A DNA stretch of 42,536 nt from Parcubacteria group bacterium (GCA_028286605.1 JAQBRE010000007.1:1-42536), one strand, 5' to 3'. Positions 1,710 through 42,536 are shown, counted from the first letter of the stretch. Notes: generated from the letters alone by a model not told the origin. Made by a program: numbers and translations.

Positions 1710-2210
1710 ATGAAAGATCTAATGATCGTCCTTGGAACGATTGTGGCCGTTATCGTGATCGGGGCTTTGCTGTTCTTCTACGGACCGCAATCCTTCCGCG
1801 TTGCGCTCGGCAGCATGTCGCCACGTGTGACGCCTACTCTCCTAAAGGAGGGAACTAACGCTACGGGAATGTCGGACCGCGCGAACTATCGCATCACCGA
1901 TAATGATGAGCTGAATCAGCTTTGGAGCTATCTAGACAATACTCCGGGTTCCGCACCAAGCGTAGATTTCAGCAAAGATGAGGTGCTCGCTATCTTTGAC
2001 GGTACGCACACTACGGGCGGGTACAATATTCAGGTGAGCAGTATTACGGATGCGAATGGTACGCGCACGGTACATGTGTCTCGTATCGCACCCGGTGCGA
2101 ACTGTTTTACGACTGATTCGATCACGAGCCCGTATGAGATTATCGCGGTGCCGAAGAGCACGCTAAGTCTAACGCACGTTGATACGAGCGTTACGCAGAA
2201 TTGCCCTTAG
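1710..2210 (+). CDS. Membrane-anchored protein with PrcB C-terminal-like domain
   Basis: N-terminal TM helix. VDFSKDEVLAIFDG..TGGYNIQV...PG..C..T..ITSPY matches the PrcB_C pattern. TATACT lies 7 nt before the ATG. Confidence 0.7.
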   Translation: MKDLMIVLGTIVAVIVIGALLFFYGPQSFRVALGSMSPRVTPTLLKEGTNATGMSDRANYRITDNDELNQLWSYLDNTPGSAPSVDFSKDEVLAIFDGTHTTGGYNIQVSSITDANGTRTVHVSRIAPGANCFTTDSITSPYEIIAVPKSTLSLTHVDTSVTQNCP

Positions 2211-2914
2211 GCGCCCTGTTCGTCGAGACGCATCAGTTCTTGTAGCTTGCGCGCGTCTCCGCTCCATTCGTTACCACTCCAATATTCAAGAGAGGGAATA
2301 TTTGTCTTGTAGCGGGCCTTTCCCCCGTATGCGGTTCCTAAATAGAGATGCGTACGATTGTCCGCCGCTGCGCGGCGGACCGCATCAAGCATCAGCCACA
2401 TGCCAAGCGATGTATTCATGTATTCAAGGCTGTAGCAGGAATACCAATAGTGACTGAAGCTGTCCTCAGCTACCTCGAGCACGTAGGCAACTGGCTCGCC
2501 ATCTTTCGTATATACGGCTGCACGGAGCGGAAGGTCGCGTGCAAGAATCTGCTCGAGCCGCTCTGCGGGCATGACGTCTGCTCCGTGACGTTCAGCGAAG
2601 TACGTGAGCATGAGGATGCGGAAAGAAGAGGACGCGCGAAGCGCGTCCTCTTCGATATACGAACACTCGAACTGCTCATCGAACTTGCGCAGGATGCGTC
2701 GATTCTCGCTCGATGCAGTATAGGCAGCTACCGCCACGCGCACGCTGCGGCTCATATAGAAAAGGTTCGGATCCATGTCGACCGCAGAATACGGAAGGAA
2801 CCCTTGTGCGTACGAAACAGAAAGCTCATCGTGCGCTTCGCGCACGCCGTGTACGGTATAACCGAACGAATAGGAATCGTATTCGTGCCCGAACTCTGCA
2901 AAGCTGAGGCGCAT
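2207..2914 (-). CDS. ATE/Bpt-like aminoacyl-tRNA-dependent transferase (GNAT fold)
   Basis: C-terminal SLGMWLML...HLYLG.....KARYK matches ATE_C. SSENRRILRK matches the ATE S+SQRR segment. The N-terminal Cys motifs are not seen. Confidence 0.65.
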   Translation of the reverse strand: MRLSFAEFGHEYDSYSFGYTVHGVREAHDELSVSYAQGFLPYSAVDMDPNLFYMSRSVRVAVAAYTASSENRRILRKFDEQFECSYIEEDALRASSSFRILMLTYFAERHGADVMPAERLEQILARDLPLRAAVYTKDGEPVAYVLEVAEDSFSHYWYSCYSLEYMNTSLGMWLMLDAVRRAAADNRTHLYLGTAYGGKARYKTNIPSLEYWSGNEWSGDARKLQELMRLDEQGA

Positions 2915-2916
2915 AG

Positions 2917-4344
2917 CTAGGAGGTGGGGAAGCGCGTCTGTATCTTCTGCGCCAAAGAATCAAGCGTTCCTTCGAAATCTCCCGAGGTGAGAAGGAGTAC
3001 GACGTCGCTCTCTGCAAGTTTTGCTACGACCGCATCTACATTTTCAGAATCATATTCTTCTACGCGGATACCAGCATCCTGAATACGCTGCGCAATCTCA
3101 TCATAGGAAAGCTGATCGTGCGTGTTCGCGCCCTGAAGCGCAGGGGCTGCAAGGAAGACCGCACTCGCGCCATCGAAGACGGTGTCATACCAAGTTAGGT
3201 TCGCGCGATTACGCCATCCGAAGGTATGGGGCTCGAACATGATCACGAGCTGACGCGTCGCGAAATGCAGAAGGATCGCATCGATAGCGGCACGTGCTTT
3301 CTCGAATGATGAGCCGAAGCCTTCGAATACCGGCACCTGCGAAGCAGGTGCAATGTTATCAAGACGGCGACGCACGCCGGCGAAATCAGCAACCGCTCCG
3401 GCAAGTGCCTCAGGTGTAACTAACTCACGTGCCAGCACGTACGCGCTTGCCGCAACGATATCTTCCACATTATGCCGACCAAGCAGGCTGGTCTCAAGCG
3501 TTGCAACAGGATACTCGTCCTTAAGTAGAGTGAACGTGGTGCGTTCGCCGTATACTATTTCGCTCGCTCGGTAGATGCCTTCCTGGATGCCATACAGAAC
3601 AACTTTCTTTCCTGAAGCTTCCGCCATCGCACGTGCGCCAGGTTCGTCCGCACAGGCAACGATGATACCGTCTTCAGGCACGAGTGCGAGCAACTCTTCA
3701 AAGGGTGCCTGATAGCTTTCGTAAGTCGGGTACACGTTCACGTGGTCATGTACGACCGATGTTAGTACTAAATCTCTCGGATGCAGGTGCAGGAACTTCG
3801 CACGTGAGTCGTCATGCGCGCTCGGATATTCATCACCCTCAAGCACGAAGCTCGGTGCACTGCCGAGTTTCGCAGGAAGGGGAAGCGCCTTCGAAGGTAC
3901 GGGTTCGGCGCCGATAAAATATCCCGCATCAACGCCTGCGTGTCGCAGGATGTGCGCGATCAGGCTCGTCGTCGTGGATTTTCCATAGCTGCCGACGACC
4001 ACGACATTGTCGCGATCTTTCGTAAGCTCGCCGAGCACTTCGGGAAACGATTTTATAGGAAGACCCGTTTCATGAGCTGCACGCACCTCCGCATTCTCTT
4101 CCGGCGAAAGTTTCGCATTGCGGCCGATCATGAACATAGTCACGTCGTCAGGGATATTGGATGGATCGTACGAAAGGCGAAGCACGGAATCCAGTTCGCC
4201 ACGCTTCAGGATCTCTCGGGGAGGCCCGTAGCATTCGGCGTCGGAGCCGGTTACGTCCCAGCCGGACTCCTTCAATAACAGTGCGGTGCCGCTCATGCCG
4301 ACCCCGCAGAGCCCGATAACATGCGCATGTCCCTTTTCCTCCAT
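2917..4344 (-). CDS. mpl: Mur ligase family protein, Mpl-like (murein peptide ligase), divergent C-domain
   Basis: HVIGLCGVGMSG..VTGSD..CYGP, GSYGKSTTT P-loop, and FVLEGDEYPSAHDDSRAKFLH..P closely parallel Mpl (EADEYD.AFFDKRSKF.HY.P). GVRRRL is also present. Confidence 0.75.
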   Translation of the reverse strand: MEEKGHAHVIGLCGVGMSGTALLLKESGWDVTGSDAECYGPPREILKRGELDSVLRLSYDPSNIPDDVTMFMIGRNAKLSPEENAEVRAAHETGLPIKSFPEVLGELTKDRDNVVVVGSYGKSTTTSLIAHILRHAGVDAGYFIGAEPVPSKALPLPAKLGSAPSFVLEGDEYPSAHDDSRAKFLHLHPRDLVLTSVVHDHVNVYPTYESYQAPFEELLALVPEDGIIVACADEPGARAMAEASGKKVVLYGIQEGIYRASEIVYGERTTFTLLKDEYPVATLETSLLGRHNVEDIVAASAYVLARELVTPEALAGAVADFAGVRRRLDNIAPASQVPVFEGFGSSFEKARAAIDAILLHFATRQLVIMFEPHTFGWRNRANLTWYDTVFDGASAVFLAAPALQGANTHDQLSYDEIAQRIQDAGIRVEEYDSENVDAVVAKLAESDVVLLLTSGDFEGTLDSLAQKIQTRFPTS

Positions 4345-21978: not shown

Positions 21979-23253
21979 TTAAGGTATAAGGTCACCCCGT
22001 AAGTAACTGCCTGCCTGAATTGCCGTGCCCCCGCTAGACGCAGTTGCTTGCGCCCACTTCAATTGAACGTCACCGACAGTTCCTGCTGTGAATACTGTTC
22101 CAGCCAAGTGAATCGGACTAGAAGTATTGGGAACTGGAATTACTATGCGCGAGCTAGTGCTACTAGCCATGATCACTCCTTGGCTGGAGCCACTCTGATA
22201 TCCAATTGTGAGAATTGCTCCTGCTGGAGCGCTAAATTCAATAACCAAATCAGCAGATGAGCTGGCAATCGCGAAAAGCTCGCCGTCAATAATGTATCCA
22301 ACGCTAGGTTGAAGGTTTTGTAGAACTAGAGTGTTGTCGTTTGTTGGAGTCGTAGAATTCGTAACGACCTGATCACTAGTCTTTGCCACCTTGGTAATTG
22401 TGTTAAGTGGTGTGGTATAGCTGATAATCACTATTCCTGATCCACCAGAACCACCCGCTGAAGTTCCTCCGCCGTTACCGCCACCCCCACCGCCCGTATT
22501 TGCTGTAGCATTTTGTCCGGCTGCGCCCGTGGCTCCGTTTCCTCCACCCCCGACACCGCCGCTGCCCGAGGTTACTGATCCGCCACCGCCCCCACCGCCA
22601 GCATAGTAAACCGTACTGCCGCTGATGCTCGAAGAGAGACCGTCACCACCATTTCCCGCAACGCCACTCGGCGAACCATTTTGACCTGCTGTGTTCGCGC
22701 CGCCACCGCCACCTGCGCCGTTTGCATTTCCGCCTGGCGTTCCGCCATCATGACCCTGGCCTGGTGTACCTGCGCCACCATTATTATAGGCTGAACCATT
22801 TGAGTTTCCGCCACCACCTGAACCGCCCGGATTAGTAACTGCACCACCACCAATTGCGGTCATAATGGAACCTAAAGAGGAATTACCGCCGTCATTATTT
22901 CCACCGCCCGCCCCGCCCGAACCAACTGTTATTGGATATGATGTTGCACTAACGTGCAGGCTCGTCGTTGCTAAAAAACCACCAGCACCACCTCCTGCAC
23001 CATTGATATCATCTTCACCGCTACCACCCCCGGCCACGACCAGGGCAGAAACCGTTCCACTACCAACACCACTACAATCAAACGTTCCGCTTGAAGTGAA
23101 TGTATGTATCGTATTACCGCCCGAATGCGTAATTGTGCCTCCGATACATTCAGTAGTGAATGCCAAAGCCGGGCTAGTACCAAGAGTCCAGAACAATACA
23201 ACTATAAATAATGGCGAGAGAACCCTCCCCGTGAATATTGTATGTTTTTTCAT
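21979..23253 (-). CDS. Secreted glycine-rich protein with phage-tail-like domains
   Basis: Signal peptide (ALA/F). GGTIT...IHTFTSSGTF, LVVAGGGSG, YYAGGGGG and GGSGIVIISY form a glycine-rich domain, followed by a C-terminal beta domain (VQLKWAQ...GSYL). Confidence 0.82.
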   Translation of the reverse strand: MKKHTIFTGRVLSPLFIVVLFWTLGTSPALAFTTECIGGTITHSGGNTIHTFTSSGTFDCSGVGSGTVSALVVAGGGSGEDDINGAGGGAGGFLATTSLHVSATSYPITVGSGGAGGGNNDGGNSSLGSIMTAIGGGAVTNPGGSGGGGNSNGSAYNNGGAGTPGQGHDGGTPGGNANGAGGGGGANTAGQNGSPSGVAGNGGDGLSSSISGSTVYYAGGGGGGGSVTSGSGGVGGGGNGATGAAGQNATANTGGGGGGNGGGTSAGGSGGSGIVIISYTTPLNTITKVAKTSDQVVTNSTTPTNDNTLVLQNLQPSVGYIIDGELFAIASSSADLVIEFSAPAGAILTIGYQSGSSQGVIMASSTSSRIVIPVPNTSSPIHLAGTVFTAGTVGDVQLKWAQATASSGGTAIQAGSYLRGDLIP

Positions 23254-31222: not shown

Positions 31223-33367
31223 ATGAAAAAAGTTGCCTGGTGGATCACCGTCGTCGCCCTCTTTATTATCCCGTTCCTCGTTCTATATGTAGATAACAGC
31301 ATATTTTTCCCATTCATCGCCGGAAAGGCTTTTGCATTCCGCATACTGGTGGAAATCGCCACAGCAAGCTGGGTGCTGCTCGCATTCGCTGATAAGAGAT
31401 ATCGCCCGCAATTCTCGTGGATCCTCGTGTTCTATGCGCTCTTCACGGCATGGATGTTCATCGCCGATTGTCTTGCAGTAAATCCGCACAAGGCGCTTTG
31501 GAGCAACTTCGAGCGTATGGATGGCTGGGTAACGCTCGTCCATCTATTCCTATTCTTCGTCGTGGCAGGTAGCGTGTTCGGCGTCGACAAGCTCTGGCGC
31601 AAATGGTGGCTCACGTTCAACGGCGCGAGCGCGCTCGTTTGCGGATACGCTCTCTTGCAAATGGCGCACGTGCTCGCGATTCATCAGGGCTCATCACGTT
31701 TGGACGCGACGCTCGGCAACTCAGAGTACCTCGCCGGCTACATGCTCTTCTGCATCGCGACCACGCTATGGCTCGCCTTTGATTTCAAAGAGAAGAAAGA
31801 GCGATGGTTGCGCTACGTGCTGTTCGTGCTCGCTATCGTGCAGGTTATCGTACTCATCGGTACTGGCACGCGCGGTACGCTGATCGGTTTCATTGTTGCT
31901 GCAGGCTTCGGCACATTGCTTTGGCTCTTCGAGGCAGGAAAGCGCGGCCGCCAGGGTGCCGCTGCGGCGCTCGTCGCGCTCATCATAGTTGTCGGCGGAT
32001 TCCTCGCGGTGCAGCATCAGCCGTTCATAACGAATAATCCGATACTTTCACGTTTCTCCTCTATCGGCGTCAGTGACCTCACCGTTCGCTTCACGATATG
32101 GCACATGGCGTGGGAAGGCATTCAGGAAAAGCCAATAGCAGGCTGGGGCCAGGAAGGCTTCAACTATGTCTTCAATAAGTTCTATGACCCATCATTATAT
32201 GGACAGGAGCCGTGGTTCGACCGCGTGCACAACGTGTATCTCGACTGGACGATAGCAGGCGGTTTCCCTGCATTGCTGTTATTCCTCGCGCTTTTCGGTA
32301 GCGCTATATACGGTTTGTATCGCGGTAGCGCAAGCCGTGCAGAACGTATTCTCGTTCTCTCTGCATTCGTGGCGTATGCGGTACAGGGTCTCGTCGTCTT
32401 CGACAACCTATTCACCTACATACCGCTTGTCGCACTCTTTGCCTTCGCGCATGCGGCACGCTCGAAACCGATTCCTACTCTTGAGAACGCATCGGAAGTT
32501 TCGGTATCGACACTCGGAACAGTCGTCGTGCCGGTTGCGGTCATCGTTCTCGCCGTTACGCTCTGGTTCGTGAATGTGCCGGGCATATTGGGCGGAAAAG
32601 ATCTCATCAAGGCGCTTTCTTCAGGTAGTAACGTAGATTCTGAGTTCGCATACTTCAAGCAGACGATTGGAACGGGCACGTTCGCTACGCAGGAAGTTCG
32701 CGAGCAGTTGCTGCAGTTCGCATCAAATGCGGTAGGGTCGCAGACGGTACCGGATGCAACGAAGGAAGCTATCGCGAGCTACGCAGCTGATCAGATGAAT
32801 CAGGAGCTTGTTCGCGCGCCGATGGATGCACGTTTGCACACGACGTTCGCGATGTTCTATCGCAGCGTCGGCGATTATAAGGACGCGCTTACGCAGAGCG
32901 CGCTCGCCGTTGCCAATGCGCCGACTAAGCAATCGATCATTATCGAACAAGGATTGGAAGAATGGCAGAACGGAGACCTGACGGATGCACGCACGATACT
33001 TGTGCACGCATACCAGCTCGATACGCAGTATGACGCTGCCGCTGCGTACGCAGCAGCAGGCGACATCATCAATGGCGATATCGCAGGAGGAAAGGCTATT
33101 CTGCAGACGCACTTCGGGGCTACCGTCGTTGATCAGTCTATTCTCGTTCCTGCGTACTATCAGGTGAAGGATTGGAATGACTTGATCGCGGTACTCGTGC
33201 TTCAGGCAAAGGATAAGGGCGACGCAGCGAGCGCGTTCCAGCTTGCTGCCGCTTATTCTGAATCCGGACAGAAGGCGCAGGCCGTAGCGGTGATTCGTGC
33301 AGCTATCGCTGCGCACCCCGATGCAGCCGTGCAGGGCAACGCCTTCATCGCGCAGCTCGGCGGATAG
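31223..33367 (+). CDS. O-antigen ligase/O-oligosaccharyltransferase-like protein (Wzy_C) with C-terminal TPR-like helices
   Basis: Multi-TM. ATLGNSEYLAGY, TGTRG, RFTIW..AW.GI.EKPIAGWGQEGF, FDRVHNVYLD, then a helical C-domain. Start at MKKVAWW. Confidence 0.88.
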   Translation: MKKVAWWITVVALFIIPFLVLYVDNSIFFPFIAGKAFAFRILVEIATASWVLLAFADKRYRPQFSWILVFYALFTAWMFIADCLAVNPHKALWSNFERMDGWVTLVHLFLFFVVAGSVFGVDKLWRKWWLTFNGASALVCGYALLQMAHVLAIHQGSSRLDATLGNSEYLAGYMLFCIATTLWLAFDFKEKKERWLRYVLFVLAIVQVIVLIGTGTRGTLIGFIVAAGFGTLLWLFEAGKRGRQGAAAALVALIIVVGGFLAVQHQPFITNNPILSRFSSIGVSDLTVRFTIWHMAWEGIQEKPIAGWGQEGFNYVFNKFYDPSLYGQEPWFDRVHNVYLDWTIAGGFPALLLFLALFGSAIYGLYRGSASRAERILVLSAFVAYAVQGLVVFDNLFTYIPLVALFAFAHAARSKPIPTLENASEVSVSTLGTVVVPVAVIVLAVTLWFVNVPGILGGKDLIKALSSGSNVDSEFAYFKQTIGTGTFATQEVREQLLQFASNAVGSQTVPDATKEAIASYAADQMNQELVRAPMDARLHTTFAMFYRSVGDYKDALTQSALAVANAPTKQSIIIEQGLEEWQNGDLTDARTILVHAYQLDTQYDAAAAYAAAGDIINGDIAGGKAILQTHFGATVVDQSILVPAYYQVKDWNDLIAVLVLQAKDKGDAASAFQLAAAYSESGQKAQAVAVIRAAIAAHPDAAVQGNAFIAQLGG

Positions 33368-33377
33368 CGATTCCGCT

Positions 33378-34385
33378 ATGCCGCGCGAGAACGTTCCGCT
33401 TGCATCACTTACGACGCTGCGCGTCGGCGGACCGGCACGATTCGTGCATACGGGAGATTCGATGGAATCCATAAAGGCCGCAGCTGCGCATTCGCGCAGC
33501 TGCGGCCTTTCGCTGTATCCGCTTGGGCAGGGAAGCAATGTACTAGCGGGGGACGCACCGATAGACGTGGTGATTCTGAAGATGGAGACGAATGAGCTTA
33601 CATTTAAACCAGACAGCGATTTCGTAGAAGTAATCGCCGACGCTGGCGTCTCGTGGGAACGGCTCGTGCAAGAGTGTACGGAGCAAGGCTTGTGGGGCGT
33701 AGAGAATCTTGCCGGCATACCCGGCACTGCCGGTGCAGCACCGGTGCAGAACATCGGCGCCTACGGCGCCGAACTCGCCGACACCTTCGCGTGGCTCGAG
33801 TGCTACGACACTGCTACCGATATGCTCATGCGCCTAGATGCCGAAGGCTGCGCCTTCGGCTATCGTGAAAGCCGTTTCAAGCATGAACCGAATCTCATCA
33901 TCACGCGCATCGCTTTGCGTCTCGCGCGTACGAGCACGCCGAAGACATCGTATGCCGATTTACAGAAACTCATGGATGCAGGCGAGCTACTAAATACTCC
34001 GCAAAAAATCGCAGATGCTGTACGCCGCGTACGCCGCGTGAAATTCCCTGACCTTACGCAAGAGGGAACCGCTGGATCGTTCTTCAAGAATCCGACTATC
34101 ACTGCGAATGCATACGAAGAACTGCAGGCGAAGTATCCGGCACTTCAAGGATTCGCTGCGCCAAGCGGAATAAAAATTCCGCTCGCATGGATTCTTGATC
34201 ACGTACTCGGCTTGCGCGGCTACCGTGAAGGACGTGCGCATCTCTTTCAAAATCAACCGCTCGTACTCGTTACAGAAAATAATGCAACAGCACAGGATGT
34301 CGAAATGCTTGCGAATAACGTCAGTGAAAAAGTTTTTGCCGCGACGAATATTTTAATTGAACGCGAAGTACGTTCACTGAAGTAA
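33378..34385 (+). CDS. murB: UDP-N-acetylenolpyruvoylglucosamine reductase
   Basis: TTLRVGGPAR, LGQGSNVL, ENLAGIPGTAGAAPVQNIGAYG, FGYRESRFK, AGSFFKNP, EREV. Confidence 0.96.
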   Translation: MPRENVPLASLTTLRVGGPARFVHTGDSMESIKAAAAHSRSCGLSLYPLGQGSNVLAGDAPIDVVILKMETNELTFKPDSDFVEVIADAGVSWERLVQECTEQGLWGVENLAGIPGTAGAAPVQNIGAYGAELADTFAWLECYDTATDMLMRLDAEGCAFGYRESRFKHEPNLIITRIALRLARTSTPKTSYADLQKLMDAGELLNTPQKIADAVRRVRRVKFPDLTQEGTAGSFFKNPTITANAYEELQAKYPALQGFAAPSGIKIPLAWILDHVLGLRGYREGRAHLFQNQPLVLVTENNATAQDVEMLANNVSEKVFAATNILIEREVRSLK

Positions 34386-34401
34386 AAAGTTTTTTGAAAA
34401 G

Positions 34402-34410
34402 TTATCCACA
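34402..34410 (+). promoter_or_regulatory. Consensus DnaA box in an AT-rich intergenic region
   Basis: TTATCCACA exact match. Confidence 0.55.
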
Positions 34411-34563
34411 CATTATTTTTTTTTCACACAAAATTTAAAATTGCGCGCAATAATATACGTACAACACATACGCGCACAAAAATAATTTTATATTTCGATT
34501 GAAATTACTTTTGTGCGCATATGGGTCGACATTAGTCGTAGTTATTTTCATTCAACCAAACAT

Positions 34564-34704
34564 ATGGCTGCAAAGAAGAAGGCTGCTAAGAAGTCCGTAA
34601 AGAAGACTGCAAAGCGCCGCCCAGCAAAGAAGTCGGTCAAGAAGGCCGCAAAGAAGACAACGAAGAAGACTGCAAAGCGCAAGACTGCAAAGCGCAAGAA
34701 GTAG
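34564..34704 (+). CDS. Histone H1-like Lys/Ala-rich small basic protein (46 aa)
   Basis: MAAKKKAAKKSVKKTAKRRPAKKSVKKAAKKTTKKTAKRKTAKRKK, followed directly by a strong terminator. Confidence 0.85.
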   Translation: MAAKKKAAKKSVKKTAKRRPAKKSVKKAAKKTTKKTAKRKTAKRKK

Positions 34705-34712
34705 TTCTACTG

Positions 34713-34746
34713 GAAAAACACCCGCTCTCACGAGCGGGTGTTTTTC
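34713..34746. terminator. Intrinsic terminator
   Basis: GAAAAACACCCGCTC-TCAC-GAGCGGGTGTTTTTC. Confidence 0.9.
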
Positions 34747-34765
34747 TTTATATAGATTGCTATTT

Positions 34766-34880
34766 GATACACGTACAGAATAGTGCTGAAGAAGGGCTCA
34801 CGGAGCGCGACGGCGCGAGTGGGAGCAAATTTTCAGCAGAAAATTATGCGTACCTTCTGAAGTACTGTTCTGGAAGTGTC
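34766..34880 (+). repeat. Structured intergenic element, copy 1 (candidate ncRNA or REP-like)
   Basis: Core AGCGCGACGGCGCGAGT...AATTTTC-AGCA-GAAAATT is shared with 41218-41327. It is closed by an imperfect long stem with G-U pairs. Confidence 0.75.
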
Positions 34881-34940
34881 TCGCCGTAACGTACCTATTA
34901 TAGGTGCAAAATACCCCTCAAAACGCTATAGTAGGCTGAT

Positions 34941-37472
34941 ATGGCTAACGTATTAGGCAAGATATTCGCCCAGAACCAGTCAGCGACCTTTATTAGAGGC
35001 GGTAAAGGCGTAGTGGATGCTGCTGCGGCGCTTTCGGAGCAGTTCGAAGGCCTTTCCAAGGAGGAACTCCAGGCACGCCTTCAGGTCGTTAAAGAACGCA
35101 CAGACGGGCATCCCGAGAAGGATGCAGATATCGCCGAAGTATTCGCGCTCGTGCGTGAAGCATCGCGCCGCATGCTGAAAGAGCGTCACTATGACGTGCA
35201 GCTTATCGGCGGCCTCGCGCTCGCAAAAGGGAAGATCGCCGAGATGCGCACCGGTGAAGGAAAGACGCTCGTCGCGACGCTCGCGATAACGTTGCGCGCG
35301 CTCGCGGGCAAGGGCGTGCACTTGGTGACGGTGAACGATTACCTCGCACGTCGCGATGCTGCATGGATGGGACAAGTGTATGACTATCTCGGCCTTAGTC
35401 TCGGTGTCATTTCTTCCAGCGGTGCATATGTATATGATCCATCGCACGTGACGCAAGGCGAAGACGAAGCCCGTGATGAGACAGGCTCGTTCCGCGTGTT
35501 TTACGACTACCTTCGTCCTGCATCGAAGAAGGAAGCGTACGATGCTGACATCACCTACGCGACGAACAACGAGCTCGGCTTCGATTATCTTCGCGACAAC
35601 ACCGCGTATGATGCGTCGCAGATCGTGCAGCGCGGCCATCACTATGCGATCGTGGACGAGATCGACTCGATCCTTATCGATGAAGCGCGTACGCCGCTTA
35701 TCATCTCGGGCCCTGCGGCAGACGCAGAACAGCTCTACGATCGCTTCGCTGCTATCGCGCGAACGCTCAATCCGGAAGAAGACTATACGGTTGATGAGAA
35801 ACAGAAAGCGATTCAGCTCACTGACGCTGGCATAACGAAAGCAGAGAAGGCACTCGGTATCGAGAATTTATATACGGAGGGCGGCGTGAAGTTCGCCCAT
35901 CACCTTGAAACTGCCGTACGCGCGCAGGCATTGTTCCATAAGGATAAGGAGTACGTGGTGAAAGACGGCGAGGTCATGATCGTGGATGAATTTACGGGCC
36001 GCCTGCAGCCAGGACGTCGCTGGAGCGAAGGCTTGCATCAGGCTATCGAAGCGAAGGAAGGTCTTGCCGTGCAGAAGGAGACGCGCACATACGCGAGCGT
36101 TACATTCCAGAACCTGTTCCGCATGTATGAGGCGCTTGCGGGTATGACTGGTACCGGCCTTTCTTCGGAGGAAGAATTCTACACGGTGTACAAGCTCGAT
36201 GTGGTGGTTATTCCGACGAACCGCGTCGTGCAGCGTATCGATCACGACGATCTTATCTTCCAGACGAATGCAGGGAAGTACACGGCGCTCGCACGCGAGA
36301 TCCAGGAACTGCAGGAGAAAGGTCAGCCGGTCCTCATCGGTACGGTTTCGATCGAAGACAACGAGGTTGTCAGTCAGTATCTTACGGATGCGAAGGTGCC
36401 GCACGAAGTGCTGAACGCCAAGAACCATGAACGCGAAGGCGAGCTTATCGCGCAGGCAGGCCGTAAGGGTCGCGTGACGGTGGCGACGAATCTCGCTGGT
36501 CGCGGCGTGGACATCAAGCTCGGCGGCGCACCGGTAGACCCCCAAGAGCAGGAAGCCGTCCGACAGCTCGGCGGCCTCGCCGTTATCGGAACGGAACGCC
36601 ACGAAGCGCGCCGTATCGACAACCAGCTGCGCGGCCGTTCGGGTCGCCAGGGCGACCCGGGTGAAACGCGTTTCTACGTATCGCTCGAAGATAAGCTCAT
36701 GCGCGTCTTCGCTTCAGACATGCTCAAGCGCGTCATGGGTACGTTCAAGATCCCTGAAGACGAACCTATTGCCAGCGGCATGATCAGCAAGAGCCTCGAG
36801 ACCGCGCAGAAGCGCATCGAAGGATTCAACTTTGACGCCCGCAAGCAGGTCCTTGCCTACGACGACGTGATGAACACGCAGCGCCTTTCCATATATGAGC
36901 GCCGTCGCATCGCGCTTACAGGCAGTATCGAGGATATAGAGACGGCCATCATGGATATGATCGGTACTGATGAAACAGCACTCGCCGCATACAAGGCGAA
37001 GAAGGAAGAGTTCGGTCCTGAAATATGGAGCGGCCTCATGCGTCGTCTTATCCTGCAGATTACGGATGCATTCTGGCTTGAGCAGCTCGAGACCATGGAC
37101 TATCTGCGTCGCACCGTCTCACTCCGTGCCTATGGCCAGCGCGATCCGCTCATTGAGTATCGTCGTGAAGGATTGATGCGCTTCCAGCAGATGGAAGACG
37201 GTATCGCAGCCCAGATCCGCGAAGCGATTCCTCATGTCATTCCTTCCGATGATTCCCTCATACGCGCACAGGAAGAGAAGACCCGTCGCCAGCTCGTTGC
37301 CGCAAGCGAAGGCGGAGATGGTTCTGATGAACAGGAAAAGACACCGATCGTTAAAGTTGATACGCCAAATCGGAACGATACCGTCACTATCCGCAAAGGC
37401 GATCAGACGCAGACGCTTAAATATAAGAAGGCAGAAAATCTTCTTGAAGAAGGATGGGTACTCGAGCAATAG
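34941..37472 (+). CDS. secA: Preprotein translocase subunit SecA
   Basis: EMRTGEGKTL, VTVNDYLARRDA, IVDEIDSILIDEARTPLIISG, GRRWSEGLHQAIEAKE, ATNLAGRGVDI, RIDNQLRGRSGRQGDPG. Confidence 0.98.
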   Translation: MANVLGKIFAQNQSATFIRGGKGVVDAAAALSEQFEGLSKEELQARLQVVKERTDGHPEKDADIAEVFALVREASRRMLKERHYDVQLIGGLALAKGKIAEMRTGEGKTLVATLAITLRALAGKGVHLVTVNDYLARRDAAWMGQVYDYLGLSLGVISSSGAYVYDPSHVTQGEDEARDETGSFRVFYDYLRPASKKEAYDADITYATNNELGFDYLRDNTAYDASQIVQRGHHYAIVDEIDSILIDEARTPLIISGPAADAEQLYDRFAAIARTLNPEEDYTVDEKQKAIQLTDAGITKAEKALGIENLYTEGGVKFAHHLETAVRAQALFHKDKEYVVKDGEVMIVDEFTGRLQPGRRWSEGLHQAIEAKEGLAVQKETRTYASVTFQNLFRMYEALAGMTGTGLSSEEEFYTVYKLDVVVIPTNRVVQRIDHDDLIFQTNAGKYTALAREIQELQEKGQPVLIGTVSIEDNEVVSQYLTDAKVPHEVLNAKNHEREGELIAQAGRKGRVTVATNLAGRGVDIKLGGAPVDPQEQEAVRQLGGLAVIGTERHEARRIDNQLRGRSGRQGDPGETRFYVSLEDKLMRVFASDMLKRVMGTFKIPEDEPIASGMISKSLETAQKRIEGFNFDARKQVLAYDDVMNTQRLSIYERRRIALTGSIEDIETAIMDMIGTDETALAAYKAKKEEFGPEIWSGLMRRLILQITDAFWLEQLETMDYLRRTVSLRAYGQRDPLIEYRREGLMRFQQMEDGIAAQIREAIPHVIPSDDSLIRAQEEKTRRQLVAASEGGDGSDEQEKTPIVKVDTPNRNDTVTIRKGDQTQTLKYKKAENLLEEGWVLEQ

Positions 37473-38713
37473 TCTCTAAGGAGACGTACGACGTCATTGT
37501 GATCGGCGGCGGAGCCGCCGGCATGATGGCTGCAGCTATGGCCGGCGCGGGCGGGAAGCGCGTGCTTCTTCTGGAGAAGAATGGAAAGCTTGGCGAGAAG
37601 CTCGCTATTTCAGGTGGCGGTCGCTGCAACATCCTGAACGCGGAAGAGGATGCGCGCGTCCTTGTTGCAAACTATGGTGCTGCGCAGCCGTTCCTTCATT
37701 CGCCATTCGCTACGTTCGGCATGCTGGAAACATACGGATTCTTCGAATCTAATGGCTTGCCGCTTACAGTGCAGGCGAAGCAGCGCGCCTTTCCGGAAAG
37801 TGAGCGTGCACGTGATGTCGTCGATTTCTTTCGCGAACAGCTCACTGCAGGAAAAGTAATCGTGAAGCTGCGCGCGCCGGTAGAGGAGATTCGTGCCAAG
37901 AGCGGCAAGATTGAATCAGTACTTGCAGGCGGTATCGAATATCGCGCACCTGCATACGTACTTGCTACGGGCGGCGTCTCGCACCCTGAGACTGGCTCTA
38001 CGGGCGATGGCTTCGATTGGTTGCGCGATCTCGGTCATACCGTTATCGCACCGACACCGACCATCGTGCCGCTCAAGGCGAAGGAAGGCTGGGTGAAAGA
38101 TCTTGCTGGAAAGAGCGTGCCGGAAGCGAAGGCGACATTCTTCGCGAACGGTACGCGCAAATTCTCCACGACGGGCCCTATCCTGTTCACGCATCAGGGT
38201 CTTTCTGGTCCCACCATCCTTAATGCTGCAGGCAAGGTTTCAGACCTTCTGCACGAGGGTGTCGTTACGGTAGAGATAGATATGTTCCCGAAAACGGACC
38301 TCGGCATTCTTGATCGCGAGCTTCGAGATTATTTTGATACCAGCAAGAACAAGTCACTAAAGAATGCATTCAGAGGATTCGTACCGAACGGCCTGAGTGA
38401 TGTGCTACTCGCACGCCTGCCCGAGATCGATCCTGAAACGAAGACGCATAGCGTTACGAAAGAGCAGCGCCGACTCCTCGCGGAACTCCTTAAGGGACTC
38501 ATGCTCACTATCACCGGACTGCTCGGTTTCGAGAAAGCCGTGGTTGCAGATGGCGGCGTTCCGCTTACGGAAATCGACATGCGCACGATGCGTTCGCTCA
38601 AGATCGAGAACCTGCACGTAGTGGGGGACCTGCTCCACATCAGCCGCCCTTCGGGCGGCTACTCCCTCCAGCTCTGTTGGACCACCGGTTTCATCGCAGG
38701 CACGAACGCGTAG
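37454..38713 (+). CDS. HI0933/YhiN (BaiN-like) flavoprotein
   Basis: IGGGAAGMMAA, KLAISGGGRCN, ATGGVSHPETGSTGDG, LFTHQGLSGP, GGYSLQ. Start position uncertain. Confidence 0.92.
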   Translation: MGTRAIVSKETYDVIVIGGGAAGMMAAAMAGAGGKRVLLLEKNGKLGEKLAISGGGRCNILNAEEDARVLVANYGAAQPFLHSPFATFGMLETYGFFESNGLPLTVQAKQRAFPESERARDVVDFFREQLTAGKVIVKLRAPVEEIRAKSGKIESVLAGGIEYRAPAYVLATGGVSHPETGSTGDGFDWLRDLGHTVIAPTPTIVPLKAKEGWVKDLAGKSVPEAKATFFANGTRKFSTTGPILFTHQGLSGPTILNAAGKVSDLLHEGVVTVEIDMFPKTDLGILDRELRDYFDTSKNKSLKNAFRGFVPNGLSDVLLARLPEIDPETKTHSVTKEQRRLLAELLKGLMLTITGLLGFEKAVVADGGVPLTEIDMRTMRSLKIENLHVVGDLLHISRPSGGYSLQLCWTTGFIAGTNA

Positions 38714-38778
38714 CATCTTTCGTTCGCCGTATTCGCATTGATATCTTTATATCGTGTGTTGTGATAAGATGCATCTAT

Positions 38779-39762
38779 ATGGCATTCGTAGATGAGATGC
38801 AGATTCATGCAAAGGCAGGTCACGGCGGAAACGGCGTGATTCGTTGGCTGCATATCAAAGGTAACGAGAAAGCCGGCCCTGCAGGCGGGGACGGCGGACG
38901 CGGTGGAGACATCGTGCTTCGCGCGGTGCGCGACCTCGGAATCCTTGCACGCTATCGATACTCGAAGAAGTTCCGTGCAGAGAACGGCGCACCAGGCGGC
39001 GGTAATGATAAGCACGGCAAAGATGGCGAAGACATCGTCATCCTCGTACCGGTCGGTACGGTAGCAAAGAACTGCACCACGCAGGAACTAGTCGAGTTCT
39101 TCGAAGACGGAGAAGAGAAGATCATCTTCAAGGGCGGCATTGGCGGTCTCGGTAATCCGCACTTCAAAAGCTCCATAAATCAGAATCCTAAGGAGGCTAC
39201 ACCCGGCAAACCAGGGCAGGCTGGGGATATCCAAATCACCCTTAAACTCATCGCTGACGTCGGTTTCGTAGGATTCCCGAATGCAGGGAAGTCCTCCATC
39301 CTGAACGAGCTCACTCGTGCGCAGTCTAAGGTCGGCGCGTACCCATTCACCACGCTCGAGCCGCACCTCGGTGAATTCTACGGGCACATACTCGCAGACA
39401 TTCCAGGCCTCATCGAAGGCTCCTCGGTAGGCAAAGGTCTCGGTTCTCGCTTCCTTCGCCACATAGAACGTACTAAAATCATTACGCATCTTGTCTCGGC
39501 TGAGCAAGAAGACATTGCAGAAAGCTATACCGCCATACGAAAGGAGCTTGAAACGTTCAGTGGCAACCTGGAAGGGAAGGAGGAGATAGTCGTACTTTCA
39601 AAGGCAGATCTTCTGACTCCTGAAGAGCTCGAATCGAAGCTCAAGATTCTTTCTGACGTCTCGGGTAAGCAGGCTATCCCGCTTTCGGTTATCGACGATA
39701 CGCTCCTGAAGGCCTTTTCAGACACGCTCTCCAAGCACCTCGACGCCATAAAAAAGGCGTAA
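38779..39762 (+). CDS. obgE: GTPase ObgE/CgtA
   Basis: MAFVDE..AGHGGNG, GGDGGRGG, LKLIADVGFVGFPNAGKSS, YPFTTL.P, DIPGLIEG. Start at 38779. Confidence 0.96.
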   Translation: MAFVDEMQIHAKAGHGGNGVIRWLHIKGNEKAGPAGGDGGRGGDIVLRAVRDLGILARYRYSKKFRAENGAPGGGNDKHGKDGEDIVILVPVGTVAKNCTTQELVEFFEDGEEKIIFKGGIGGLGNPHFKSSINQNPKEATPGKPGQAGDIQITLKLIADVGFVGFPNAGKSSILNELTRAQSKVGAYPFTTLEPHLGEFYGHILADIPGLIEGSSVGKGLGSRFLRHIERTKIITHLVSAEQEDIAESYTAIRKELETFSGNLEGKEEIVVLSKADLLTPEELESKLKILSDVSGKQAIPLSVIDDTLLKAFSDTLSKHLDAIKKA

Positions 39763-39804
39763 CCCGCGGTTGCGCGTTTGCCTCAGAACCTCTAGGCTAG
39801 AGCT

Positions 39805-41226
39805 ATGTCCGACCCCCGTTCAGAATATAAAACGACTATCGGCCTCGAGGTCCATGCCGAGCTCGCTACGCAGACCAAGATGTTCTGCGACTCTCCGAAT
39901 GACTCGGAAGAGACGCGACCGAACCAGAACGTATGCCCGGTCTGCCTTGCGCACCCAGGAACGATTCCTGTACCGAATCGCGAAGCGATTCATCATGTAC
40001 TGCGTGTCGGCAGCGCGCTCGGTTCGAAGCTCGCCGACTACAGCGAGTTCGATCGTAAATCATATTTCTATCCGGACATTCCGAAGGGATACCAGATCAG
40101 TCAGTTCGAATATCCATTCGTCTCCGGCGGTTCGCTCGGCGGCGTTGACATCACTCGCGTGCATCTTGAAGAAGACACGGCGCGCTCTTCGCATGCGAAC
40201 GGCGCAAGTCTCGTTGATTTCAATCGTGCCGGCGTGCCACTCATGGAGCTCGTTACCGAGCCGGTGATTCATGACGCAGAGACTGCAGGCAAGTTCGCCC
40301 GTGAACTTCAGCTCCTTCTTCGCACGCTCGGTGCATCGCATGCGAACCTCGAGAAAGGGGAGATGCGCATAGAAGCGAACATTTCCGTATCAAAGACCGA
40401 CACCTTCGGAACGAAAGTTGAGGTTAAAAACATTAACTCGTTTCGTTCTGTGGAGCGCGCGATCGCCTATGAAGTTGATCGCCAGATTAAACTTATCGAA
40501 GAAGGCGGAGCCGTCGTGCAAGAAACGCGCGGCTGGGACGAAGGCAAGCAGGAGACATTCCATCAGCGCCTCAAAGAGGGTAGCGCAGACTATCGTTATT
40601 TCCCTGAGCCTGATATCCCGAAGATATATCGCTCTCGTATTGCTGAATGGAGCGATGAGGCATTAAAAGCCTCGCTGCCAGAACTGCCGTGGGAGAAGCG
40701 TGCACGCTACACAACGTTCGGCATGAAGGAAGAAGATGCTGTATACGTTGCGAACGACGTAGAGCGCGCGGTATTCTTCGACGCCGTTATAAATGCGATA
40801 GGTGATGACACGAACATGCGTATGCTCGCGGTTAATTATTTCGTATCGGATCTTGCAGGAATTTATGCGAATGCAACGAGTGAAATAAAAATTACACCGG
40901 AAACATTTACAAAACTCATACAGATGATCGGCGCGAACAAGCTTTCATCACGCGGCGCGAAAGACACGCTCGCACTGATGGCTACAGAAGGTGGCGATCC
41001 TGAAGCTCTCGCTACCGCGCATGGCCTCGTACAGGTTAGCGATACAGGCGCTTTGCTCAAGGCCGTTCAGGAGGTTATCGCAGCGAACGATGCGGTGGTA
41101 GCTGAGTACCGAGCGGGCAAAGAAGCCTCTCTTCAGTTCCTCCTTGGCCAGGCCATGAAGGCCACCCGCGGCGCCGGCAATCCTGGCGTGCTCAAGGAGC
41201 TGCTCATCGCTGAACTAAAGAAATAG
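39805..41226 (+). CDS. gatB: Asp/Glu-tRNA amidotransferase subunit B
   Basis: IGLEVHAEL, FDRKSYFYPDIPKGYQISQ, HLEEDT, DFNRAGVPLMELVTEP, VEVKNINSF, DYRYFPEPD. Confidence 0.97.
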   Translation: MSDPRSEYKTTIGLEVHAELATQTKMFCDSPNDSEETRPNQNVCPVCLAHPGTIPVPNREAIHHVLRVGSALGSKLADYSEFDRKSYFYPDIPKGYQISQFEYPFVSGGSLGGVDITRVHLEEDTARSSHANGASLVDFNRAGVPLMELVTEPVIHDAETAGKFARELQLLLRTLGASHANLEKGEMRIEANISVSKTDTFGTKVEVKNINSFRSVERAIAYEVDRQIKLIEEGGAVVQETRGWDEGKQETFHQRLKEGSADYRYFPEPDIPKIYRSRIAEWSDEALKASLPELPWEKRARYTTFGMKEEDAVYVANDVERAVFFDAVINAIGDDTNMRMLAVNYFVSDLAGIYANATSEIKITPETFTKLIQMIGANKLSSRGAKDTLALMATEGGDPEALATAHGLVQVSDTGALLKAVQEVIAANDAVVAEYRAGKEASLQFLLGQAMKATRGAGNPGVLKELLIAELKK

Positions 41227-41327
41227 ATAAAAGCCATTTTGGGGACTACGCAGCGCGACGGCGCGAGTCGGAGGAATTTTCCAGCAGGAAAATATCCGTG
41301 CCCCAAAATGGCTTTTATCTATTTCTT
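41218..41327 (+). repeat. Structured intergenic element, copy 2, with perfect 27-bp arms
   Basis: AAGAAATAGATAAAAGCCATTTTGGGG (41218-41244) and its exact reverse complement (41301-41327) enclose the same core as copy 1. Confidence 0.8.
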
Positions 41328-41380
41328 ATACACAGTCCCCATCTATTTCATACAAGACAAGATAGCCTTATACTTTCTAT

Positions 41381-42313
41381 ATGAATGAACTTACTATCGA
41401 TGGCAAGATATACATCTCGTCTAAGAAGGCCGCTGATCTGACGGGGTATGCGAAGGACTACATCGGGCAGCTTTGTCGTGAAGGTCACGTTGAAGCGCGC
41501 ATGGTCGGTCGCAGCTGGTATGTGCTTGAAACCTCGATACGTGCCCATCGTTTCGGCGGTGATCCGCACGCAACGCCTATTGAAGCTGCGGTTGAAGCGC
41601 CTCTGGCTGTTTCAGTAACGGATGCCTGGGAAAAGCCTACGTATGTTCAAGAAACAGTGCCCTCCATGCTTATTCCAACCGTACAGCGCCCCGCAGAGCC
41701 TGAAATAACGCCTGTAGAAGCGGTTTCTTCTGCTGAATCCTTAACTGATATGCAGGCAGCGTGGAAGGAATGGTTCTCACAGAAGCAAGATACGCTCATT
41801 GAAACGCCTGAAATCATTGATGCACGTGAGGAGGCACACAATCACGAGGACGAGATCGCTCGCAACATTCAGGCATTCAAGGATGCGCATCAGGATATCG
41901 AGGCTTCGGAGCACGAAGTAGAGCCACAGGAAGCGCTAGAAGAGCAGGTTTCAATCACTCCTATACATCATGCTGAGCCAGAGGAGCCAGTATTCGACGA
42001 GATAGAAGAGGAGTCAGAGCCGGTATTGATTCACCATGCTCCAGAAGTATTGCACGTTGCTCGTGTGGAGCAGCCTGTACTAAGCAAGAAAGAGCGTAAG
42101 CAGGCACAGGTTCGTGCCCGTAAGGCGCGTCGTGCACGTACGGAGAGCACTGGAGGATCGTTTGTTCTTCAGGCGTTACTATTCGTACTGATTCTCGTCG
42201 CTATTGTGGTAGCGATTATTGGAACTGGGTATGCGGCGAATTACGTTCGCGTTAACCCTATTCTTCTTCCTGTGTTCGATTATCTCGGTGGAACGAGCAC
42301 ATTCACTAAGTAA
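41381..42313 (+). CDS. N-terminal excisionase-type HTH protein with acidic linker and C-terminal TM helix
   Basis: YISSKKAADLTGYAKDYIGQLCREG.VEAR.VGRSWYV, then an E/P-rich linker, a basic patch and a hydrophobic helix. TATACT lies 6 nt before the ATG. Confidence 0.85.
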   Translation: MNELTIDGKIYISSKKAADLTGYAKDYIGQLCREGHVEARMVGRSWYVLETSIRAHRFGGDPHATPIEAAVEAPLAVSVTDAWEKPTYVQETVPSMLIPTVQRPAEPEITPVEAVSSAESLTDMQAAWKEWFSQKQDTLIETPEIIDAREEAHNHEDEIARNIQAFKDAHQDIEASEHEVEPQEALEEQVSITPIHHAEPEEPVFDEIEEESEPVLIHHAPEVLHVARVEQPVLSKKERKQAQVRARKARRARTESTGGSFVLQALLFVLILVAIVVAIIGTGYAANYVRVNPILLPVFDYLGGTSTFTK

Positions 42314-42371
42314 ATAAAGGGTATTCTATCTCGGATAGAATTAGTTAAAGAAATAAATAGTTACTAGATAG

Positions 42372-42404
42372 TAAAAGAACGAGCCCGAAGGGCTCGTTCT
42401 TTTA
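42372..42404. terminator. Bidirectional-type intrinsic terminator
   Basis: TAAAAGAACGAGCCC-GAA-GGGCTCGTTCTTTTA. Confidence 0.88.
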
Positions 42405-42536
42405 TCTTATAAGCCTATATAAGAGGACTTTCAATCAAAATATTGTGGCGCTTACATACCTATCTATAGATCCAAACGCCTTAGAAACGAATATAGAGGC
42501 ACGAATAATCATTCATATCAGTTATACAGAATGACT

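Follow-up and report, generated by a model that had tools for sequence, protein, structure and literature searches.

Two hairpins in a 42,536-nucleotide stretch of DNA from a Parcubacteria group bacterium (GCA_028286605.1, JAQBRE010000007.1:1-42536; hereafter the window, with positions counted from its first letter) belong to a large, uncatalogued family of interspersed hairpins in Patescibacteria. The two copies, at 34766-34882 (copy 1) and 41218-41327 (copy 2) on the + strand, each carry a conserved three-way junction on top of a long stem, and selection acts on this structure, every helix of which shows compensatory changes. A first-pass annotation of the window had joined the two sites as copies of one multi-stem element and proposed either a new RNA or a mobile repeat like the repetitive extragenic palindromic (REP) sequences. 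Our own preference, held tentatively and at a little under even confidence, is for an interspersed module of the general kind of REP and enterobacterial repetitive intergenic consensus (ERIC) repeats, in which the stem would serve messenger RNA (mRNA) 3' ends and the apex would act as a single-strand platform for a host factor.

The unit is 95-150 nt long. Its stem (P1) is almost purely Watson-Crick and private in sequence to each copy, and the apex is a conserved three-way junction of about 56 nt with two arms: P2, with a GNA/GA internal loop and a GACG tetraloop, and P3, capped by an AGCA tetraloop and interrupted by a bulged A. GA and GUR are the strands of the junction. Nucleotides conserved across classes of the phylum are GGA, the GACG loop, GAG, the CAGCAG of P3 and GCGUG; we call the strand bearing GGA, GACG and AGCA the sense strand. 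Within the stem, only the innermost ~5 bp of the arms recur between copies (GRGGG/CCCYC type), or ~12 bp within one subfamily of G055, which with its congener G215 is one of two high-copy carriers referred to below (the window's own genome is G000). Some copies also have a purine-purine GNA/GNA internal loop in the stem, ~19-21 bp below the apex.

Covariation in this structure was strong. In the genome set, which comprised 57 distinct copies, standard pairs filled 92.7% of cells at paired columns (64.0% in column shuffles), both sides changed in 29 of the 30 pairs, and the covariation score of 0.741, against 0.206 in shuffles, was reached by none of 500 shuffled alignments; sliding the partners by 1-3 columns lowered it to 0.08-0.13. 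A metagenome replicate (88 distinct copies of 96 matches, from 80 loci) gave 91.9% against 64.3%, change on both sides in 30 of 30 pairs and a score of 0.640 against 0.169, with the qualification that both alignments were fitted to the model and that the metagenome set was also selected with a pattern fixing part of P3. Pairing reached 99-100% in the upper P2 helix (P2b) and in P3, both of which used several pair types, and was weaker, at 76%, in the lower P2 helix (P2a) because a U.C mismatch recurs there. Thirteen copies in G055 have an almost invariant core, and among them P1 and three upper-P2 base pairs vary with perfect compensation (upper-P2 variants GCGC, GGCC, CGCC/GGCG and AGGC/GCCT). 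Between one pair of positional orthologues, L045 in G055 and C82 in G215, a GAA/GUA stem loop is kept, and the stems, P2a and P3 change compensatorily; at this pair one arm overlaps the end of a coding gene.

The family is dispersed both within genomes and between them. BLAST and motif scans gave five copies in the window's genome; besides the two of the window, contig C3 has two and the 4-kb contig C4 has one. A first covariance model, built from these five, recovered exactly the five known copies in G000 and matched at E<=0.01 in 40 of 61 related genomes including G000, with 1-35 copies each; the carriers comprised 23 of the 36 others with the same genus label and 16 of 24 from other families of the order. 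A second covariance model (R2), built from 58 matches, found 37 copies in G055 and 24 in G215. In a sample of 151 genomes spread evenly over the phylum it matched just 5. Three of these are from other classes, and their variant of the element has a few additional nucleotides and an upper P2 helix of 5 bp. A pattern for this variant, run on species genomes, matched four contigs (two labelled Candidatus Saccharibacteria, one Candidatus Adlerbacteria and one 'uncultured bacterium'), and the element pattern occurred in at least 120 metagenome contigs. In viral contigs the pattern had no match, and BLAST of copy 2 against phage and plasmid collections also gave none. These genome sets are draws and not censuses, related genomes within them are not independent, and the covariance-model E-values are rough.

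The family could not be matched to a described one. At gathering thresholds, Rfam 15 reported only tRNA and the 3' end of small-subunit rRNA across the whole window. At E<=10, every match near copy 1 fell on a neighbouring terminator (34700-34787), and the matches at copy 2 were mostly microRNA-precursor models, far under their cut-offs and matched by the long stem alone. The published full texts that we searched do not describe the element; motif catalogues in supplements could still contain the family. Passages of two preprints (10.64898/2026.10.21.760802 and 10.64898/2026.09.15.751765) make no mention of Patescibacteria or of a three-way junction, and the TM7 passages of PMC5737381 concern the lysM-TM7 motif. 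The first-pass annotation had likewise recognised no named family and had pictured a conserved three-way junction dispersed through the genome, naming as outcomes that would undo the idea a lone pair of copies without covariation or a match to an Rfam or REP family; what emerged was five genomic copies, carriers among two-thirds of the related genomes, strong covariation and no such match.

Three further loci touch on family membership. C4 (L005 1-4103, 4.1 kb) holds a second gatB end and downstream gene, with 81% protein identity to those of the window, and its own element copy; given that identity, this copy corresponds to copy 2 and comes from a divergent strain or a contaminant. Many P1 positions differ between the two, every one of them compensated. 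The G000 assembly reports 4.22% contamination, and C4 points to strain heterogeneity or contamination. At L113 4446-4500 lies a shortened relative (25 bits) with P1 and P3, including the CAGCAG loop region, and no P2 hairpin. At L063 ~2130-2200, after gatB in G063, a long hairpin with a non-family apex contains a P3-like TTCAGCAG stretch; it may be a different or decayed apex module.

In the window, the shared core was delimited by alignment of 34800-34854 with 41248-41302 (55 nt, 84% identity), the longest two-copy repeat family found there, and both copies folded far better than shuffled sequence: copy 1 at -55.4 kcal/mol (z -7.25) and copy 2 at -60.1 kcal/mol (z -9.65), each on the + strand. 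Copy 1, which scored 81 bits with the first model and 84 bits with the second, is folded as an outer helix P0, an internal loop, P1 and the core. P0 comprises 7 bp (34766-34772 with 34876-34882); the purine internal loop sets GUA (34773-34775) opposite GAA (34873-34875) and recurs in the copy at C3:363960; and the 5' arm of P1 (34776-34795) pairs with 34853-34872, with a GA/GA tandem mismatch and two G-U pairs. The 3' side of the stem, from the P1 3' arm through the GAA side of the loop to the P0 3' arm, thus occupies 34853-34882. Inside the core (34796-34852), P2a (34797-34801/34819-34823) is followed by the P2 internal loop, GGA (34802-34804) opposite GA (34817-34818), and by P2b (34805-34808/34813-34816) with its GACG loop (34809-34812). 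P3 (34825-34834/34839-34849) has its AGCA loop at 34835-34838 and its bulged A at 34846, and the junction is formed by A 34824 and GUA 34850-34852.

Copy 2 (100 bits) has a simpler stem, a perfect 27-bp P1 (41218-41244 with 41301-41327) that directly encloses the core (41245-41300). The core elements follow the same order: P2a (41245-41249/41267-41271), the internal loop GCA (41250-41252) opposite GA (41265-41266), P2b (41253-41256/41261-41264) with the GACG loop (41257-41260), P3 (41273-41282/41287-41297) with the AGCA loop (41283-41286) and bulged A (41294), and the junction nucleotides A 41272 and GUG 41298-41300. In both copies P3 consists of a 2-3-bp foot, the bulged A, a 7-bp helix and the AGCA loop. 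A 473-aa GatB-like ORF (open reading frame; 39805-41226, stop codon 41224-41226, + strand) reaches into copy 2, whose stem takes its first 9 bases from the final codons and stop of this ORF; the stop thus lies inside the 5' arm of P1. The ORF was one of 40 proteins scanned with Pfam, among which GatB_N and GatB_Yqey had one match each.

Most structural details of the first-pass annotation were borne out by these folds. Its hairpin A, GCGC-GACG-GCGC, is the upper P2 hairpin and sits above the GGA/GA or GCA/GA internal loop; for the part below it in copy 2, the family alignment gives ACTAC/GTCGG with the recurrent U.C mismatch in place of the proposed GACT/AGTC. Its hairpin B corresponds to P3, where an AGCA loop on a 7-bp stem shifted between the copies and the GC..GC to GG..CC switch appear as described. 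The cores are indeed closed by long stems of unrelated sequence, and on the + strand the copy 1 stem accommodates its two differences as G-U pairs, the - strand folding much more poorly (-34.0 kcal/mol). Copy 1 does lie downstream of a separate terminator-like hairpin with a T-run (34719-34745), outside the element. The statement that neither copy has a terminator U-tract holds by the criteria of our terminator scan, which called no terminator-like site at copy 2 and accepts only 3-8-nt loops, too short for the 56-nt apex, and stands to that extent only. Between copy 2 and the next ORF (ATG at 41381), also outside the element, is a promoter-like site on the + strand, TTCATA-16-TATACT (41347-41374).

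Copies across the family are found directly after the ends of housekeeping genes that are unrelated to one another. Using simple longest-ORF gene calls, we counted 46 gene ends no more than 70 nt from one of the 57 copies; 17 lay upstream on the element's strand and 29 downstream on the opposite strand. Among 92 metagenome copies the corresponding counts were 24 and 33, and 42 copies had no ORF of at least 100 aa ending nearby, in part because of contig ends. The gene usually ends 10-30 nt from the edge of the model, with its stop codon at or inside the stem base. No association with one gene family emerged: 40 neighbouring proteins fell into 77 Pfam families, none enriched and none with more than two members, and the neighbours include FtsZ, RecA, GatB, the release factor RF-1, ribosomal proteins S7, L2, L7/L12 and L32, ribosome recycling factor (RRF), GyrA and a TypA/BipA-type GTPase. 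On the four large G055 contigs with clear GC skew, the sense strand coincided with the G-rich, presumed leading strand 19 times and with the other 16 times. Local GC skew around the 57 copies was not significant (mean -0.012, positive at 25 of 57), the genome skew of 0.01-0.02 being too weak for flanks this short. From the gene-end counts and the 19 to 16 split, orientation is free with respect to both transcription and replication.

The two strands are not equivalent. The sense strand gave the better fold in 47 of the 57 copies (means -63.2 vs -57.6 kcal/mol). Outside the modelled core, an ungapped count of the stems gave 991 Watson-Crick pairs, 30 G.U and 9 A.C, and a gapped count, which over-extends in some copies, gave 59 G.A/A.G mismatches against 20 C.U/U.C and 67 G.U against 37 A.C. 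By strict criteria, 8 of 57 copies had a 3x3 internal loop with purine flanks (for example, GUA/GAA, GGA/GUA, GAA/GUA and GGA/GGA), which lay 14-21 bp below the core and in seven copies at 19-21 bp; the mirror pyrimidine type occurred in none and a mixed type in three. By eye, with no counting rule, the purine loop is present in more than these eight. Because the stem mismatches favour one strand (G.A over C.T, G.U over A.C), that strand appears to fold single-stranded, and the stems as well as the apex therefore carry single-strand features. In the reading that we prefer, the element probably acts in RNA.

Comparison of related genomes showed that they differ in the sites that carry the element, which is often present in one of two congeners and absent from the other. 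At the gatB locus it was present at none of 29 other same-genus loci, most of which have in its place a long, plain A-run/T-run hairpin. We mapped the flanks of the 24 G215 copies to the four G055 contigs (~596 kb of a ~800-kb genome): six copies were shared with G055, all in the same relative orientation, 11 were G215-only and seven were not placeable. At the G215-only sites, G055 has a terminator with a stem like the outer stem of the element (one case), an unrelated plain terminator, or nothing. In the other direction, one G055 copy corresponds in G215 to a ~30-nt spacer without a hairpin. The copy at L040 in G055 is 93% identical to a G215 copy elsewhere, and BLAST gives no alignment to its positional partner. 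Element hairpins stand beside a separate plain terminator at three sites (copy 1, G215 C100:6346 and G215 C99:2946). We considered insertion into the loops of existing terminators as a general rule and rejected it: only G215 C60:3638 compared with G055 fits, and the other sites show whole-hairpin differences, adjacent terminators and a hairpin-free empty site.

In G215, at C28 (L153) 2075-3483 and C79 (L146) 1719-2652, two small inserted segments are each bracketed by two elements in inverted orientation, the left one antisense and the right one sense. One segment sits between the genes for elongation factors EF-G and EF-Tu and contains a 194-aa ORF; the other contains a 179-aa Cys-rich ORF. 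The element pairs were not found at the corresponding G055 sites, nor, where these aligned, were the enclosed segments of C28 and C79. The inverted pairs around these segments could be a cassette-like arrangement.

A search for a mobilising enzyme covered four protein families (PF01797, PF00078, PF07282 and PF01609). The first-pass annotation had suggested mobilisation by an HUH nuclease of the Y1 type (the REP-associated tyrosine transposases, RAYTs, or IS200-type enzymes). PF01797, the Y1/HUH transposase family (Y1_Tnp), matched in 39 of the 61 relatives and had no match in G000 or in G055 with its 37 copies, which argues against that suggestion; co-occurrence of element and Y1 was only loose (29 genomes with both, 11 with the element only, 10 with Y1 only and 11 with neither). 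Reverse transcriptase (PF00078, RVT_1) was rejected as a partner: it occurs in 25 of the 61 genomes (18 with both, 22 element only, 7 reverse transcriptase only, 14 neither) and was not found in G049 (18 copies) or G038 (17 copies). Neither the TnpB zinc-ribbon family (PF07282) nor DDE_Tnp_1 (PF01609) had a match in five high-copy genomes, and motif scans of G000 and the four G055 contigs gave no split autonomous form in which an ORF separates P2 from P3. Several relatives (G001, G006, G023, G036 and others) have up to 10 Y1_Tnp places each, in open frames of ~140-310 aa; most are partial matches (profile positions ~40-119), and together they form an expanded family in small genomes.

Several known systems share part of this profile. 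Like REP sequences, their bacterial interspersed mosaic element (BIME) clusters and REPINs, the element is an interspersed imperfect palindrome that follows genes in either orientation and varies in copy number between relatives; its gene-end positions in both orientations and its frequent presence or absence between related genomes support REP-like behaviour of the sort that the first-pass annotation had raised. REPs are simple hairpins of 20-40 nt, conserved throughout and present in hundreds of copies, with a cognate Y1 (RAYT) gene and a 5' GTAG-type tetranucleotide; BIME clusters in E. coli bind gyrase. The element differs in having a private stem, a branched 56-nt apex and 1-37 copies in place of a simple hairpin conserved in sequence, and where a REP/REPIN-RAYT system would be expected to include a cognate Y1 gene (PF01797), G000 and G055 have none. 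ERIC repeats (intergenic repeat units, IRU) and Correia elements (Correia repeat enclosed elements, CREE) are MITE-like units of transcribed intergenic space that form a long hairpin once transcribed; the element shares with them its length of ~100-150 nt, a long hairpin, both orientations and presence or absence between relatives. However, their arms are conserved, with terminal inverted repeats, whereas the arms of the element are unrelated between copies, and they offer no counterpart to the conserved three-way junction. Correia elements duplicate a TA target.

The element resembles intrinsic terminators in its position right after stop codons and in its outer arms, of which in many copies the 5' one is rich in A and the 3' one in T; its 'loop', however, is a 56-nt covarying three-way junction conserved across classes. 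With self-cleaving ribozymes such as the hammerhead and twister it shares a small branched fold, conserved loops and junction, variable stems and many copies, yet it has no Rfam match to them even at E<=10, and its closing stem of 19-28 perfect bp is far beyond what they need. For palindrome-associated transposable elements (PATEs) derived from IS200/IS605, a bias to the lagging-strand template would be expected, in contrast to the 19 and 16 of G055. A K-turn (L7Ae-type) has a 3-nt bulge followed by tandem sheared G.A pairs, with 5 nt opposite 2 nt, unlike the P2 loop of the element, with 3 opposite 2 (GGA/GA, GCA/GA or ACA/GA), and its outer loop, with 3 opposite 3; both resemble tandem-G.A or loop-E-like loops. 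Integron attC sites, retron msd, CRISPR, omega and bridge RNAs, signal recognition particle RNA, 5S RNA and Y RNA were set aside on architecture or copy number, Rfam being the search that covered them. On these comparisons the element is closest in behaviour to REP and ERIC repeats and fails their defining features.

In the reading that we tentatively favour, the element would be a non-autonomous repeat of REP/ERIC type, gained and lost at gene ends as a whole hairpin. Transcription from the neighbouring gene would turn the long stem into a stable 3' hairpin on the mRNA, which might serve as a termination aid, a barrier to 3' exonucleases or a site for a double-strand RNase, and a conserved host factor, underlying either the element's function or its propagation, would dock on the apex as folded on the sense strand. 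A number of observations weigh against this. The main difficulty is that at least half of the copies are antisense to the gene whose stop they abut; the neighbouring mRNA would then contain the strand without the G.A and G.U features, and a sense-strand role inside such mRNAs cannot hold for all copies. Read-through into copy 1 may be weak, since it lies between a separate terminator and a promoter-like -10 box. The core has next to no G-U pairs (in the 57 copies, ~5 over the 18 pairs that make up P2b and P3), a scarcity that is unusual for purely structural selection on RNA and would fit a constraint at the DNA level or on both strands. As to mobility, no direct repeat was seen at the occupied and empty pair in G055 and G215, where the flanks are ~78% identical and the boundaries inexact. 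With no mobilising enzyme among the families tested and no target duplication seen at that one clean empty site, presence and absence between genomes is what speaks for movement. A search of sequencing runs gave no RNA run containing the stretch. Over 33300-42500, contigs from three soil metatranscriptomes matched at 80% likeness only in conserved parts of genes from other organisms, with no cover of copy 1 or copy 2, and are informative neither way.

Many of the same facts could be read as stand-alone small RNA genes, encoding a trans-acting RNA, a protein scaffold or a self-cleaving ribozyme, each with its own sense promoter and placed at gene ends simply as spare space. This would suit the high conservation of loop and junction nucleotides across phylum classes, the covariation of all helices, a G.A/G.U asymmetry that is sense-specific whatever the orientation of the neighbouring gene, and the nearly constant spacing of 19-21 bp between the outer purine loop, where present, and the junction; copy 1, between a terminator and the next promoter, would be expressed only by its own transcription. 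Yet no consistent upstream promoter motif could be aligned, in a comparison where minimum-free-energy folds defined the hairpin bases unreliably because of spurious outer pairs. The copy at C3:375778 is cramped, with 33 nt to one ORF start and 15 nt to the stop of an FtsZ-like ORF, 1-37 copies with frequent presence or absence between congeners are atypical of a housekeeping RNA, and none of the self-cleaving ribozyme families of Rfam was among the matches at E<=10. We rank stand-alone genes second, as unlikely if a serious candidate. A different extension of the evidence, distinctly unlikely in our judgement, is a new small mobile module that spreads as a whole hairpin without a known transposase, its catalytic or factor-recruiting apex driving its own copying into gene ends across Patescibacteria; such an apex might, for example, be an RNA of a new kind that cleaves or ligates itself, or offer a universal host enzyme a platform.

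If mobility is set aside altogether, the copies might be ordinary terminator hairpins with an elaborated, vertically inherited apex, all differences between genomes being losses. The relatives and G055 do use long, near-perfect A-run/T-run hairpins as plain gene-end hairpins, and many element stems share the A-rich 5' arm and T-rich 3' arm, the 3' arms of the C3:363960 and C3:375778 copies ending in TTTT. At G215 C60 the plain G055 stem resembles the outer stem of the G215 element, and two other sites have a plain terminator in place of the element hairpin. What makes this reading quite improbable is that cores are nearly identical within one genome (the 13 G055 copies), that positional orthologues diverge more than paralogues do (L040), that some elements adjoin a separate plain terminator (the three sites named above), that one empty site has no hairpin at all, and that copies 1 and 2 have no T-tail by the scan criteria. 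Two DNA-level readings seem to us very improbable. A non-autonomous single-stranded DNA element of REP/REPIN or IS200/IS605-PATE type, its hairpins recognised by an HUH/Y1 transposase encoded elsewhere, would account for the strand-specific folding signals, the almost purely Watson-Crick core helices, the intergenic, gene-end positions with turnover and the Y1_Tnp matches in 39 of 61 relatives; but G000 and G055 have five and 37 copies and no PF01797, 10 genomes have Y1_Tnp and no element, replication-strand bias is absent in G055, no P2-ORF-P3 split was found in G000 or the four G055 contigs, and P2 is unlike P3, whereas the two ends of IS200/IS605 carry hairpins that are alike. The second reading, which we find equally doubtful, has the element act as double-stranded or cruciform DNA, a place at gene ends where a nucleoid or topology protein would bind or cause extrusion, much as the REP/BIME clusters of E. 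coli bind gyrase; it would sit well with the free orientation relative to transcription and replication, with the long perfect arms and two short central sub-palindromes that could nucleate extrusion, and with a core nearly without G-U pairs. Conserved purine-purine mismatches on one strand only are difficult for it, and it would predict retention of sequence, yet P2b, P2a and P3 change freely while staying paired.

To the REP and ERIC kind of repeat, the family adds a covarying three-way junction that spans classes while the arms are free. Genomes of Patescibacteria (the candidate phyla radiation) are tiny and tightly packed, and some keep up to 37 copies of a ~100-150-nt module despite little spare DNA. 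Its apex is conserved all the way from genomes labelled Saccharibacteria to genomes labelled Adlerbacteria, and branched structures that covary and keep their loops are among the better computational signs of a functional structured nucleic acid. Action in RNA would make the element a new class of structured RNA or a new means of forming mRNA 3' ends; mobility would make it a repeat that moves without any transposase family tested. The family is also a ready marker for strain-level variation in Patescibacteria.

Several other features of the window lie outside the element. Just upstream of copy 1, a 63-aa lysine/alanine-rich ORF (34513-34704) ends at a strong bidirectional terminator-like hairpin and contains an internal 54-nt repeat (34576-34629 and 34639-34692, 78% identity); its product could be a basic protein that binds DNA or RNA, such as one like histone H1. 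Direct repeats of the CCGCCACC type cluster at 22478-22832 and presumably encode, on one strand, a Gly- or Pro-rich repeat protein. At the start of the window, the 16S rRNA 3' end (1-118), which aligns to the bacterial model, reads GGAACAUAUCCAAU where the canonical tail is GGAUCACCUCCUUU, and the CCUCC anti-Shine-Dalgarno core is missing. A tRNA-Ile(GAT) gene follows it (874-949) and 23S rRNA was not found in the 42.5-kb window, so the rRNA operon appears to be split. Promoter-like -10 boxes lie ~7 nt before starts (TATACT ending at 41374, ATG at 41381) and are arranged similarly in relatives; together with the missing anti-Shine-Dalgarno core, they would suggest leaderless or Shine-Dalgarno-independent translation, and, judged from this window, the lineage may translate without a standard anti-Shine-Dalgarno sequence.

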